A DNA stretch of 64,000 bases from Anaerolineae bacterium (GTDB lineage: Bacteria; Chloroflexota; Anaerolineae; DTLA01). The stretch is from assembly GCA_034436295.1 (NCBI GenBank), contig DAOTVT010000071.1, positions 1,208 to 65,207 of the forward strand, given 5' to 3'. The position numbers were made by a program, and so were the translations under genes. Below, one piece after another: positions 9,425 to 13,690 of the stretch; within the stretch, counting starts at the first letter, position 1, and every line of letters starts with the position of its first letter. Below the pieces are notes generated by a model. That model ran no database searches. It was not told where the DNA came from and saw only the letters and a list, made by a program, of their open reading frames with translations.

Positions 9425-10669
9425 CTACTCGTACCTCAACGCCTCAATGGGGTTCAACTCGGCGGCGCGCTGGGCCGGGAAAATCCCGAAGAACAGCCCC
9501 ACCGCCACCGAGAAGAGCGTCGCCAGGAGCACCGAGTCCAGGCCCACGACGGCGCTAATCTGCGTGTTGCCCAGGTTGATGCCCGTGATGAACCGCGAGA
9601 TGCCGTACCCGACGAGGATGCCACCCACGCCGCCAGCCACGCTCAACAGGGTGGCCTCGGTCAGGAACTGCGCCAGGATGTCGCGCTTGCGGGCGCCGAC
9701 GGCCTTGCGGATGCCGATCTCGCGGGTGCGTTCGGTAACGGAGACCAGCATGATGTTCATGATGCCGATGCCGCCGACCAGCAGCGAGATGGCCGCGATG
9801 CCGCCCAGGAACACCGTCAGGATGCCCGTGATCTGGTTCGCGGCCTCAATGGTATCCTTCTGGCTCGTGATGGTGAAATCATCCTGGTAGAGGATGTTGT
9901 GGCGCTCGCGCAGGATGGCGCTGATCTCCTCAACCGCCTGGTCGGTTACCTTCTCGCTGACCACCTGCACGTTGATGGTCTGGATGGTGTTGCCGCCACG
10001 GAACCGCCCGCTGGACGCCAAACGGCTTTGCAGCGTCGTGAGGGGCACCAGGATTCGGTCGTCCACCACGCCGAAGCCGGTGCCGCCTTTGGCTTTCAGG
10101 ACGCCGATGACGCGAAAGTTCTGCCCGTTGATGCGAATGGTCTTATCCAGCGGGTCTTCGCCGTTGAACAGTTCGGCGGCGACGTTGGCGCCGATGACGG
10201 CAACCGGGCTGCGCGCGGCGACATGCTGCGCCGTGATGAAGGAGCCGCTCTCCACCGGCATGTTGCGCACCTGCTCGTACTCGGGCGTAACGCCTGTAAT
10301 CTGGGTGTTGATGTTGTTAGACAGGTACACCACCTGGCCGAAGGCCGACGCCTCGGGCGCAACGGCGGCCACCGAGGGGGCGCGCACGGGGTCGGCCAGG
10401 GCCAGCGCGTCCTCGTAGGTCAGCGTCGCCGCCGATCCCTGCGCCATGCGGACGCCCCCCTGGCTGGCGGCGCCGGGGCGCACGAAGAGCAGGTTGGTGC
10501 CCATGCTGGTAATCTGGCTGGTGATGGCTGCCTGGGCGCCGCGCCCAATGGAGAGCATGGCGATGACGGCGGCCACGCCGATGATGATGCCCAGCATGGT
10601 CAGGAACGACCGCAGTTTGTTGGCCGACAGGCTGGTGATGGCCGTGCGGAGACTCTCTTGCACGTTCAT
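9425..10669 (-). CDS. ABC transporter permease, MacB/FtsX family
   Basis: MacB-type permease with N-terminal TM, large periplasmic domain and C-terminal FtsX 3-TM bundle. Start placed at MNVQESL, preceded by AGGAGGAAG. Confidence 0.85.
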   Translation of the reverse strand: MNVQESLRTAITSLSANKLRSFLTMLGIIIGVAAVIAMLSIGRGAQAAITSQITSMGTNLLFVRPGAASQGGVRMAQGSAATLTYEDALALADPVRAPSVAAVAPEASAFGQVVYLSNNINTQITGVTPEYEQVRNMPVESGSFITAQHVAARSPVAVIGANVAAELFNGEDPLDKTIRINGQNFRVIGVLKAKGGTGFGVVDDRILVPLTTLQSRLASSGRFRGGNTIQTINVQVVSEKVTDQAVEEISAILRERHNILYQDDFTITSQKDTIEAANQITGILTVFLGGIAAISLLVGGIGIMNIMLVSVTERTREIGIRKAVGARKRDILAQFLTEATLLSVAGGVGGILVGYGISRFITGINLGNTQISAVVGLDSVLLATLFSVAVGLFFGIFPAQRAAELNPIEALRYE

Positions 10670-10700
10670 GCGGCTTCCTCCTGTGTGCCGTCGCTGTGTA
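10661..10700. repeat. 32-bp direct repeat, copy 1 (at permease start/RBS)
   Basis: CGTTCATGCGGCTTCCTCCTGTGTGCCGTCGC is identical to 13654..13685. Confidence 0.8.
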
Positions 10701-10761
10701 CCAGCGGGGCGCTGTGCGACTTCAAGTGGCAAGGGTTCATCTGAAACTCCTCGTCATGGGA

Positions 10762-13566
10762 CTAATCCACAATGGTGATTTGCCCGACAACGGCTTGGTC
10801 ATCGGGCAGACGTTCGCCTGAAACCGTCCGCGCGTCCAGGCGCTCCAAATCGTGTGGCTCGTACATGCCTACGGCGATACGGTAGTTGCCGGGCGCGCTC
10901 CCCGCTGGTACCTGGAGGGTGTGCGTGTCGGCCACTACCTCTCCCGTAATCCAGCCCGTAGTTGGGCGTGTCCAGTTGGCGGGGGCAGCATCGCTCTGCG
11001 ACACGATCTTCCCATCGGCGTCAATAAGATGAACGAAAACCTTGTATTCGGCATGGATTATGGTCAGCGCGCGCCAGTAGAGGGTCAACGAAGCCGGCTC
11101 GCCGGCAGACAACACTTCCTTGTCCAGGTCGTAGCCCAACAACTCAATCTGGTTCCCCAGGCGGAACGGTTGGGCCAAAGGATGGCTCATGGGCGGCGGG
11201 GTCATCATCCGTGTAACGCCGGCGATGCGAACCGACCCAAGGGAGACCGCATTGGCCTGCCCAGGCAAGGTCATCATCAACGTGTACACGCCTTCAGCGA
11301 TGTCGGCGGGAAGGCGAAGCAAATAGCGTTGGCGAACCACTTCGCCGACTGCCCAGCCCGCGGCTGGATAGTCCACGGCCAACGGATACTCCCAGGACGC
11401 AGGTACATCCCCCGCCGAGTCAGCCAGCCAGAGACGCGCCGACGTGCGCGAGGTGGTGGGTTGGACGGCTTGCCAATCCACTTCCACGAGAACCGTCTCA
11501 CCAGGGCGCCTCTCCGCGTCTGCCAGCGTCCATCTGGGCACACGCACAGCGCCCAGTGATGGCGCAGAGGCTTGGATCGGCTGTAGCCAACGCTGGCCGA
11601 CGGCGATGGCAACCTCCCCTGCGTCCACATAAACACCCCTCATTGCTCCCTGCGCGTCCCGCACGGGGAGCGGTATGGCATGGTCTCCGGACAGAATCAG
11701 GCGGGCCATGTACGTGCCAGGCGCCAGCCAGAGGTCCAGCGGCACGTCTAGCCACTGCCACACGTGGTCGCCGGGCTGCCACTCGCTTGGCAGGTAACCA
11801 ATCTCATCCGTCTGCGCCCAGAGCAGGTCCTGCGCATCCACGAGATGAACGGCGAAATTCCGCGCGCCACTGGCCGGTTTCAGCACCTCCCACTCTATGC
11901 CCACCCGCAGGGGCTCTCCGCGAGTCGCCTTGCGCGGCACCTGCAGACCCCAGAGTCTGACTTCATCGCCCAGCGTGGCGACCGGGGAGTCGGGATGTTC
12001 TGCGGCTGGCGGCCTGCAGATGCGGTACAGCACCACACCCACGTCTCCGACCCTGTTTCGGAATTCCTCCTTGGAGCATGCGACTCTCTCAATGACCTGC
12101 AACGCAGGCGTGATGGGGTTGGCATGGGCCACCGGCACGAAGTAGTCAATTTCGCGCCCATCCCATGCGGGCAAGACCGCCAGTTTCTTGCCAACCAGCC
12201 ATTTTGCATTGACGGTAACAGGCTCGGTGAAGACTGAGGAAGGATGTTTGTAGTGCTCGGACGCGATGATTACGGTGTGCCCGGCGGTCATTTCCGCTTT
12301 GGCCAGGTGCGCAATCTGGACGTAATCGCTGTGGAACCCGTAGTACACGGTGCGGCTCGGTGCCCAGATGGTGAAGTAGTGGATGCCGTTCCAAATGCCC
12401 TCGGCGGCCAGGATCACCCCCGCGCATAGCGCGGCCGCTTTCCACCACTGGATGTGCGCTTTCAGCCACCCTAGCAGGACTAACATGCCTACTGCTGCGA
12501 GTCCGTAGATGGCGGGAATCACGCCAAACATGCGCTGGCCCACGGGCATGGGCTCGGCCGTCAGAATCGGCGGGAGGCTCATGCCCAGCCACCACAACAA
12601 CAGTATCCCGTATGGTTGCTGTCTCCACCGCCACAGCGCCACGGCCACACCCAGCAGGAAGAATGGCCCGATCAGAATGTCAAAGACCGGCTTGCCTTGC
12701 AGGCTGTAACGGGTACTCATGTTGAGGTGCGGCAGGTAGGTGATGCCCATGTGGTAGATGTTCTCAGCGATGATGGACAACGGGCTACGCTCACCCGCCT
12801 TCGCCCAGACGCCGACTTGATTCGCGCGCTCCCAGAAGTCGTGAGAGTTCCTCAGGTAGTAGATGCCCAGGGGCGCGAAAGTGAGCGCCGCGGATGCCAC
12901 GGCCAGGGTGATGCCCTTCCATTGCGCCCGGAAGCGCTGCCGATCCACGATGAACAGGTACAGCAGGATCAGGAGCATCGTGAGCGGGAAGAAGCGCGCC
13001 GCCAGGTATATGTAGAGCGTGCTTCCGGTAGCGATGCCGCCCAGGATGAACAGCCACTTCTTGCCTTCGTGGTAGCCGCGCCATAGGAAGTAGATCGCCA
13101 TAGTCTCCACAAGCGGCATCAACGTCCAGCAGAAGCCGGTGCGCGTTACGTTGAAGTGCCAATAGGCGGTGGCCGTGATGAAGGCGCCGACAAGTGCCAC
13201 CCAACGGCCGAACATCTGGCGGAATGCCAGGTAGGTTATGGGCACGGTCAACGTCCCAATGAGCGCAGAGGCGAGCCGCAATCCGAACGTGTTGGGCCCG
13301 GTGAACAGATAGACGAGGGCCACCAGATACATATAGAATGGCTCGCGCCCTGTGTACGACTTGAAGAAGATGGGAAAACTACCCCGGTAGATTTCTTCGG
13401 CCTGCAGGCCGTAAACCGCCTCGTCAAAATGGACGCCGGGTGGGAAGACACGCAGCAGGTACGTCCGAAGGAAGGCAGCAACAAGGGTAATGGCTGCCAG
13501 CGCAGCCCATTCCCAACGGGCCCATCTTTTGGGCGTATCCGACGAGGTGGTGAAATCCTGCCGCAT
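10762..13566 (-). CDS. glycosyltransferase family 39 (PMT_2/ArnT-like) membrane protein with large C-terminal repeat domain
   Basis: N-terminal ~450 aa multi-TM domain with an ArnT/PMT-like signature (FHFDEAVYG, YTGREPFYMY). C-terminal ~480 aa extracytoplasmic region with internal W/Y-rich repeats. Confidence 0.8.
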   Translation of the reverse strand: MRQDFTTSSDTPKRWARWEWAALAAITLVAAFLRTYLLRVFPPGVHFDEAVYGLQAEEIYRGSFPIFFKSYTGREPFYMYLVALVYLFTGPNTFGLRLASALIGTLTVPITYLAFRQMFGRWVALVGAFITATAYWHFNVTRTGFCWTLMPLVETMAIYFLWRGYHEGKKWLFILGGIATGSTLYIYLAARFFPLTMLLILLYLFIVDRQRFRAQWKGITLAVASAALTFAPLGIYYLRNSHDFWERANQVGVWAKAGERSPLSIIAENIYHMGITYLPHLNMSTRYSLQGKPVFDILIGPFFLLGVAVALWRWRQQPYGILLLWWLGMSLPPILTAEPMPVGQRMFGVIPAIYGLAAVGMLVLLGWLKAHIQWWKAAALCAGVILAAEGIWNGIHYFTIWAPSRTVYYGFHSDYVQIAHLAKAEMTAGHTVIIASEHYKHPSSVFTEPVTVNAKWLVGKKLAVLPAWDGREIDYFVPVAHANPITPALQVIERVACSKEEFRNRVGDVGVVLYRICRPPAAEHPDSPVATLGDEVRLWGLQVPRKATRGEPLRVGIEWEVLKPASGARNFAVHLVDAQDLLWAQTDEIGYLPSEWQPGDHVWQWLDVPLDLWLAPGTYMARLILSGDHAIPLPVRDAQGAMRGVYVDAGEVAIAVGQRWLQPIQASAPSLGAVRVPRWTLADAERRPGETVLVEVDWQAVQPTTSRTSARLWLADSAGDVPASWEYPLAVDYPAAGWAVGEVVRQRYLLRLPADIAEGVYTLMMTLPGQANAVSLGSVRIAGVTRMMTPPPMSHPLAQPFRLGNQIELLGYDLDKEVLSAGEPASLTLYWRALTIIHAEYKVFVHLIDADGKIVSQSDAAPANWTRPTTGWITGEVVADTHTLQVPAGSAPGNYRIAVGMYEPHDLERLDARTVSGERLPDDQAVVGQITIVD

Positions 13567-13650
13567 AGCGAGTGCACTCCCTGCTAGAGATCGGGCCGAC
13601 GCACGTCCGGATACATTCTACGGGATGAACCTTTCTCCGCCAATCTGGGG

Positions 13651-13690
13651 TGTGCGTTCATGCGGCTTCCTCCTGTGTGCCGTCGCCGTC
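13651..13690. repeat. 32-bp direct repeat, copy 2 (3' end of ABC ATPase gene)
   Basis: Identical 32-mer to 10664..10695. It contains the ATPase stop codon overlapping an ATGAAC that matches the permease start. Confidence 0.8.

Follow-up and report, generated by a model that had tools for sequence, protein, structure and literature searches.

The 64,000-nucleotide stretch analyzed here (hereafter the window), from contig DAOTVT010000071.1 of an Anaerolineae bacterium, carries on its minus strand an export operon with a gene for a membrane glycosyltransferase lodged between two transporter genes. The operon opens with a 468-residue membrane-fusion (periplasmic adaptor) protein (14400–15806; HlyD_D23/HlyD_3 domains), whose gene length is that called in the related contigs L172–L176 described below. 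It continues with a 230-residue ATP-binding cassette (ABC) ATPase, a MacB-type nucleotide-binding subunit that ends in GDGTQEEAA and a stop codon (13658–14350; Pfam ABC_tran, 117 bits). Next comes a 934-residue PMT_2 glycosyltransferase (10762–13566; Pfam PMT_2), followed by a 414-residue MacB-type permease (9425–10669; Pfam MacB_PCD, 187 bits, and FtsX, 81 bits). These coordinates and this gene order, proposed in an initial annotation made from the sequence, are right according to Pfam and NCBIfam. The adaptor scores 174 bits for NCBIfam RND_mfp, above its cut-off, and the parts that mark a MacAB-type tripartite exporter are present: a permease with MacB_PCD and FtsX domains, an ABC ATPase and a membrane-fusion adaptor. 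Scores for the equivalog models of Escherichia coli MacB (NF007826, 238 and 299 bits where 966 are required) and MacA (NF008606, 111 where 342 are required) fall short, and we class the transporter, from its sequence, as MacB-like and not as MacB.

The glycosyltransferase gene is bracketed by a perfect direct repeat of 32 nt, CGTTCATGCGGCTTCCTCCTGTGTGCCGTCGC, as the initial annotation had reported. The repeat occurs exactly twice in the window (10663–10694 and 13655–13686), with a copy spacing of 2,992 nt, and a repeat search stretches it to 35 nt with one mismatch. No third copy is present in the window when up to three mismatches are allowed, and 0 of 100 dinucleotide-preserving shuffles matched. 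A dispersed repeat family, which the annotation had raised as one outcome that would speak against an insertion, is ruled out by the presence of two copies only in the window.

Each copy of the repeat completes one of the two transporter genes. The copy at the ATPase end, J_A (13655–13686, minus strand), reads GAC G/GC GAC ... GCC GCA TGA ACG and holds the last nine ATPase codons, the TGA stop, a now-orphaned permease ribosome-binding site (GGAGGA) and ATGAACG; in the ATPase frame it translates as ..DGTQEEAA, followed by the stop and 3 nt. The repeat had been described as lying wholly within the ATPase gene, as its final 32 nt; 29 nt, TGA included, belong to the end of the gene, and the other 3 lie beyond it. 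The other copy, J_B (10663–10694, minus strand), supplies the permease with its GGAGGA, its ATG and the first 7 nt of the gene, in agreement with the annotation: it consists of 25 nt upstream of the ATG and then ATGAACG, with GGAGGA placed 6 nt ahead of the ATG across the spacer AGCCGC. Between the copies lies the insert proper, 2,960 nt (10695–13654, minus strand). Because 32 nt stand on both sides of the insert, the ATPase retains its last nine codons and stop, and the permease retains its ribosome-binding site and start.

Alleles that lack the insert were found in near relatives. A scan for the permease in genomes and metagenomes returned relatives at no more than 61% identity, which served as an outgroup and gave no close-range empty site. 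At 135 of these 160 distant MacB loci, the ATPase lies immediately upstream of the permease (median gap 48 nt); gaps of more than 1 kb arise solely from second permease copies, and none of the loci holds a GT39 homolog. Near relatives were reached through a protein search with the ATPase, and an exact record look-up matched neither the window GT39 protein nor P0001. The NCBI organism names attached to the close ATPase relatives agree on Anaerolineae/Chloroflexota. A 99% identical ATPase, P0085, is encoded on three contigs from different samples: L172 (ERZ27247220), L173 (IMG 3300031463, a Yellowstone hot-spring metagenome) and L174 (IMG 3300005839). These contigs are 98.0–98.8% identical to the window flanks and carry one copy of the 32-mer. 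Their gene order is adaptor, ATPase, permease and DUF5666 gene, and then a convergent response regulator and kinase, with ATPase and permease overlapping by 4 nt (ATGA). By megablast, positions 1–10696 of L172 correspond to window positions 24351–13655 (98.6%) and positions 10665–15249 to 10694–6082 (98.0%); the lone 32-mer of L172 aligns with both window copies, and both window copies equal the single junction of L172–L174. Over the ~18 kb of flank compared, the window is otherwise colinear with the empty alleles. The comparison of orthologous loci suggested with the initial annotation thus came out as predicted, with ATPase and permease contiguous in the absence of GT39, and its proposal of a ~2.9-kb insertion into an overlapping junction, with duplication of that junction, is borne out by the single-copy ATGA junction of the empty contigs. 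The insertion comprises 2,960 nt (10695–13654) plus a 32-nt target duplication, and its position is the ATGA at which the ATPase stop and the permease start overlap.

The filled allele is not confined to the window. Four full-length proteins belong to the GT39 cluster at ≥90% identity, and close ATPase relatives far outnumber the members of this cluster. One member, P0210, occurs on L175 (ERZ27247713), L176 (IMG 3300031749) and L177 (SRR9651403), always between ATPase and permease. The insert of these contigs is 99.26% identical to that of the window (22 differences in 2,960 nt); their J_B is the window's, and their J_A has one synonymous change, ACA to ACC (31/32). We compared 13 kb of shared flank among four haplotypes (the window; L175/L176; L172/L173; L174), which proved about equidistant (0.9–1.7%). 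Sites that split the haplotypes two by two join the window to L175 in 20 cases, to L172 in 42 and to L174 in 21, and 31 of the 42 sites sit in the 9-kb bin that contains a hypervariable repeat at 9300–9420. Because all three partitions are supported, carriers of the insert form no clade in their flanks. The insert is therefore a presence/absence polymorphism among ~98–99% identical hot-spring Anaerolineae strains whose flanks are shuffled by recombination. Its divergence between carriers, 0.74% against 0.92–1.44% in the flanks, indicates a slightly more recent coalescence, and in an insert of that age the two 32-nt copies are expected to differ at one position or none. Gene conversion between the copies was considered as the cause of their identity and set aside as superfluous, given the near-identical empty alleles and the 31/32 carrier.

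The GT-C gene covers 2,805 of the 2,960 insert nucleotides and is the only Pfam-supported gene there. Its product matches PMT_2 over residues 76–235 (46.7 bits against a gathering score of 26.1); it reaches no NCBIfam family above cut-off and gives no sequence-level match to any solved structure, and the 64-kb window contains no GT39 paralog. GT39 is a database label here and does not imply specificity for protein O-mannosyl transfer from polyprenyl-P-mannose. An AlphaFold model of the protein (predicted local distance difference test, 92.3; predicted template-modeling score, 0.84) consists of a multi-helix membrane domain at residues ~13–430 and stacked extracytoplasmic β-sandwich domains at residues ~430–934. 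The membrane domain finds the GT-C enzymes AglB, ArnT, STT3 and ALG9 with Foldseek (AglB 5gmy, E = 5e-11; ArnT 5f15, target-normalized template-modeling score of 0.55), and the β-sandwich domains match macroglobulin-type domains. Among 56 homologs, D48 of the first external loop never varies and E49 is conserved in at least 90%; these residues may be the counterparts of the PMT 'DE' motif or the ArnT aspartate. The model and the conserved acidic residues suggest a probably intact enzyme, which would take its sugar from a polyprenyl phosphate and transfer it to an acceptor located outside the membrane. GC content at third codon positions (GC3) is 0.76 in the GT39 gene and 0.87–0.91 in its neighbors, yet several other window genes lie near 0.75 and the codon-usage distance is unremarkable. 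The compositional check proposed with the initial annotation thus yielded a weak contrast, and we take composition as a weak hint of foreign origin.

A diverged form of the same arrangement exists in a sister clade. The next-best GT39 homologs (P0002–P0004, 71–74% amino acid identity) are encoded on three short Logan contigs, L170, L171 and L086, again in the order ATPase, GT39, permease. Nucleotide identity to the window is 88–92% in the flanks of these contigs (~91–95% at the protein level), and in the GT39 gene it is ~80% in the membrane half and ~60–70% in the C-terminal half. Synonymous divergence (dS) between the window and L086 is 0.30 in the ATPase fragment, 0.51 in the permease fragment and 1.06–1.58 in GT39, and identity at four-fold degenerate sites is 127/202 on the flank side as against 172/368 on the GT39 side. 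For the clade of L086, L170 and L171, dS relative to the window comes to ~1.1–1.3 in GT39 and 0.3–0.5 in the flanks. In a neighbor-joining tree, the window GT39 is sister to P0002–P0004, and the nearest allele from another context, P0005 (64%), falls outside. The GT39 genes resident at this junction therefore form one clade, which points to a single old insertion.

The sister clade also differs at the junction itself. Its ATPase has lost the overlapping TGA and ends instead in a nine-codon tail (..EEAIQRLDSVEAA; IQRLDSVEAA-like) that reads into the former insert (L086 190–256) and whose length is conserved across L086, L170 and L171. The short tail of the ..EEAA type is present in 14 of the 14 relatives read (80–99% identity). 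When the 42-nt permease leader of L086 is compared with the whole contig, its best match is the ATPase 3′ end, and this match (GCGG...GGAGG..AAGC.A.T.AACGT) has the same limits as the window repeat (GCGG...AACGT). On the simplest reading of these sequences, the scar left by junction duplication would have decayed where the cassette became fixed, that is, in the sister clade. The cassette lineage is older than the strains that carry it, and the insertion is unlikely to have been a one-time event of recent date.

More distant GT39 homologs occur in other settings. On L081 (5696–12814), a 57% homolog lies downstream of a DUF5666 gene, a 301-residue FtsX-domain fragment (54% identity with the C-terminal half of the permease in the window) and an OpgC-type acyltransferase; several more GT-C genes follow it, and no ATPase or adaptor was detected in this interval. 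The arrangement hints at a looser, older association of GT39 with the transporter neighborhood. We also considered, from a 51% homolog in L082, that GT39 beside a two-component system might be ancestral, and dropped the idea: the regulator is 44% and the kinase 30% identical, and the empty alleles carry the same regulators without GT39.

The history that best explains the locus, to which we assign a probability of roughly 0.6, is that of an operon-internal accessory islet that arose by one old insertion, has been transmitted by vertical inheritance and homologous exchange, leaves the permease expressed by read-through and serves envelope glycosylation. The insertion would have occurred in the ancestor shared with the L086 clade, through a rare illegitimate event. 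Where the insert is absent, the ribosome-binding site of the permease is embedded in the final codons of the ATPase, whose stop overlaps the permease start, so that a plain insertion at this point would cut one gene short or deprive the other of its initiation signals. Events that duplicate at least the segment from ribosome-binding site to stop would be the only ones tolerated, and such a selective filter, rather than a specialized enzyme, may explain the tidy scar. After the insertion, the ATPase ends normally. Expression of the permease would probably depend on read-through, beginning at the promoter of the operon or at one in the cassette, and on the ribosome-binding site that the duplication supplies. 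Since then, vertical inheritance would have maintained the cassette, and homologous recombination in the conserved transporter genes would have carried it from strain to strain; it has no mobility machinery of its own. The two copies may have stayed identical because each is part of the flank over which recombination with the common empty allele takes place, because the insert spread recently in the population, or both. Carriers would gain variable envelope glycosylation.

Several observations weigh against this history. The intergenic parts of the insert align no better between the window and the L086 clade than shuffled sequences do (p = 0.25–0.9); with intergenic homology undetectable, the argument for a single origin is carried by the protein tree and the shared position. 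The decayed junction copy is suggestive in L086, and its signal is undetectable in L170 and L171. The initial annotation had named a GT39 gene at this position without a duplicated junction as evidence to the contrary; we count no such case, the older carriers showing a decayed junction copy (suggestive in L086) and not a clean absence. The higher dS of GT39 could reflect weaker codon constraint, and within the L086 clade, too, the GT39 dS is ~1–2 times the flank value. We infer homogenization of the copies through recombination with empty alleles, and we saw no recombination tract that ended at a copy. We likewise infer the emptiness of the distant relatives P0088–P0101 from the lack of 75–95% GT39 matches and not from their DNA. 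Finally, the promoter assigned to the cassette is, as a sequence, a bare consensus match.

Among the alternatives, the one that survives best reverses the polarity of recent events: the filled state would be ancestral in the species of the window, and the empty alleles would have arisen by precise deletion between the 32-nt copies, perhaps repeatedly. A perfect 32-nt repeat is workable for such a deletion, whose product would be the exact sequence of the empty allele with its ATGA junction, and the star-like, incongruent flanks give no polarity. Yet all 135 distant loci with an upstream ATPase are empty, as most relatives at 80–99% identity also appear to be. We consider this reversal unlikely; it covers recent history only and is compatible with a single old insertion.

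A second alternative is a site-specific cassette, in which a minimal integrative element would use the 32-nt junction as its attachment site, leave as a circle with the help of RecA or of a recombinase acting in trans, and re-integrate. The direct repeats, identical to the empty site, do resemble attL, attR and attB, and precise empty alleles are found in near-identical strains. In addition, the same junction is filled by a 71–74% identical allele in another clade whose flanks are ~90% identical, and the insert diverges less between carriers than the flanks do. The insert itself argues otherwise: it has a single long open reading frame and encodes no transposase and no tyrosine or serine recombinase, and the ~18 kb of flank is otherwise colinear with the empty alleles. 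Terminal inverted repeats are also lacking (the best match between the two 120-nt ends scores 8.5, which 12% of shuffles equal; p = 0.12), as are attC-like or att-like hairpins, the intergenic regions of the insert folding no better than shuffles (z = −0.03 for the 3′ region with J_B and +0.70 for the other). In the L086 clade, the decayed copies and the ATPase read-through tail imply that the cassette is immobile there; the junctions of the two clades differ (~22/33 nt), leaving no single conserved att specificity, and the protein tree fits a single origin. We hold a site-specific cassette to be improbable. We give slightly less credence again to the specific proposal that GT39 and its 32-nt flanks form a recombinase-less or trans-mobilized cassette that exits as a circle and re-enters at empty junctions; if true, it would make a reversible, scar-free on/off switch for envelope glycosylation inside an efflux operon.

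As improbable as a site-specific cassette, in our view, is an independent, recent de novo insertion in the population of the window, for example by a staggered break with fill-in or by template switching during replication, with a separate event in the L086 clade. Copies that are perfect in the window and match at 31/32 positions in L175–L177 are what a young duplication would show, the intergenic parts of the two clades' inserts cannot be aligned, and the GC3 of GT39 is lower than that of its neighbors. Such a history, however, requires illegitimate insertion to have happened twice, with sister alleles landing within ~1 nt of the same position in two related lineages, and no closer GT39 is found in any other context, the next being the 64% allele. 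Lastly, an assembly artefact (a chimeric join or a de Bruijn graph loop at the 32-mer), conceivable for a metagenome-assembled contig whose repeat length is near common k − 1 values, can be dismissed: the filled structure was assembled independently in three other samples (including contigs at k = 141) and the empty one in three, the diverged version appears in three Logan assemblies, and both states come from assemblies with a final k-mer of 141, longer than the repeat, which rules out a graph artefact.

Small features at the two ends of the insert bear on how its neighbors may be expressed. A promoter-like sequence, TTGGCG-N17-TAGAAT (13615–13643, minus strand), lies upstream of GT39; it is a consensus match, one of 3 such sites in the region against 1.4 expected. 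It falls within a 25-codon upstream open reading frame (13584–13661, minus strand) whose start is the orphaned permease ATG of J_A and whose stop precedes the GT39 start codon by 17 nt. At the other end, a 24-codon mini-open reading frame with its own GAGGAG (10666–10740, minus strand) crosses J_B in the reading frame of the ATPase and terminates in the permease ATGA overlap, where it could restore termination–reinitiation coupling to the permease. We give it little weight: open frames this long are likely to occur by chance in GC-rich sequence, and L170 has no conserved ATG-initiated open reading frame. No terminator-like site was found at either junction.

Downstream of the permease lie a DUF5666 gene (8853–9293, minus strand), which is a conserved neighbor in empty and filled strains, and a convergent two-component system on the plus strand (6152–8780), with a GAF–HisKA_3 kinase (6152–8158) and a GerE/LuxR response regulator (~8127–8780). 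The genes for the kinase and the regulator share 32 nt (8127–8158), here as in L172–L176; the likeness to the length of the junction repeat seems coincidental. Between the permease stop and the DUF5666 gene, an inverted repeat of 7-nt tandem units (GCTGATT / CAGCGGT-like; 9312–9415) is the most variable stretch among L172–L176, with many indels, and similar 7-nt arrays occur at 51386–51456 and 56889–56969. A dispersed family of ~45–135-nt segments, 83–100% identical, is represented in the window at ~5808–6013, 34606–34681, 45526–45743 and 58841–58978 and in L173 at 8106–8598; its copy number varies between strains just upstream of the kinase gene.

Elsewhere in the window, two arrays of 68–69-nt units (31178–31529, 5.1 copies; 31933–32198, 3.9 copies) are built from a long palindrome, CACAAAGACACAAAGACACGGAG...CTCCGTGTCTTTGTGTG. 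Intergenic tandem arrays are present at 41696–42058 (period 156, 2.3 copies) and 58844–58982 (period 46, 3 copies of a GC-rich, hairpin-like unit). A T-box leader (5403–5648, minus strand, 105 bits) precedes an isoleucyl-tRNA-synthetase-like gene (2118–5261), and a glmS ribozyme (56521–56757, plus strand, 42 bits) scores barely over its gathering threshold.

The locus offers a clean natural example of a gene placed between translationally coupled, overlapping genes with damage to neither: the overlap and its ribosome-binding site are duplicated, and one copy completes the upstream gene as the other starts the downstream gene. Alleles from before and after the event in one wild population, together with an aged form in a sister clade, amount to a life history of an insertion, with its stages on record as fresh, segregating, and then fixed with a decayed scar and a longer ATPase tail. 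They also describe a strain-variable surface glycosyltransferase in uncultured hot-spring Anaerolineae, which, we speculate, could affect recognition by phages or predators.

Both protein systems at the locus have well-known counterparts. The transporter resembles the MacAB–TolC exporter of E. coli and YknXYZ-type exporters in combining an adaptor, an ABC ATPase and a permease with the MacB periplasmic core and FtsX domains, and it departs from them in having ATPase and permease as two distinct polypeptides and in reaching none of the equivalog cut-offs. The glycosyltransferase shares with ArnT (GT83), PMT (GT39) and AglB/STT3 a GT-C membrane fold and, putatively, an acidic first-loop motif, with PMT_2 above its cut-off; set against these enzymes, it shows 11–14% identity in structural alignments and carries a C-terminal β-sandwich stack of roughly 450 residues. 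A search of the literature for a link between MacB and family-39 glycosyltransferases found nothing relevant.

As a mobile unit, the insert is like an insertion sequence (IS) or transposon in lying between direct target duplications. Transposases typically leave target-site duplications of 2–15 nt, however, and here the duplication is 32 nt, with no transposase and no terminal inverted repeats. Integrase-borne islands that occupy the 3′ end of a tRNA or protein gene resemble it in their direct repeats of tens of bases, which are identical to the empty site and rebuild the 3′ end. Unlike those islands, the insert has no integrase, excisionase or second gene and spans just 3 kb, and its repeat must also rebuild the start of the downstream gene. 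By the tests that define them, the locus is not an IS element, an integrase island or an integron cassette, and on present evidence it does not reveal a new mobility mechanism. Passages on the minimal mobile elements, or genomic islets, of Neisseria (Saunders & Snyder 2002; PMC3787668) describe variable content between fixed flanking genes, exchanged by homologous recombination. Our locus is alike in several respects: content varies between conserved flanks among the closest relatives, no mobility genes are present and the flanks recombine, with filled and empty alleles at 98–99% flank identity and the same organization in L086, L170 and L171. We know of no flanking target duplication in the Neisseria elements. 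These lie between separate genes, whereas the present insert occupies a 4-nt overlap inside an operon, with 32 nt duplicated. We therefore file the locus as a genomic islet that behaves as a Neisseria-type minimal mobile element and has an unusual, operon-preserving junction duplication.

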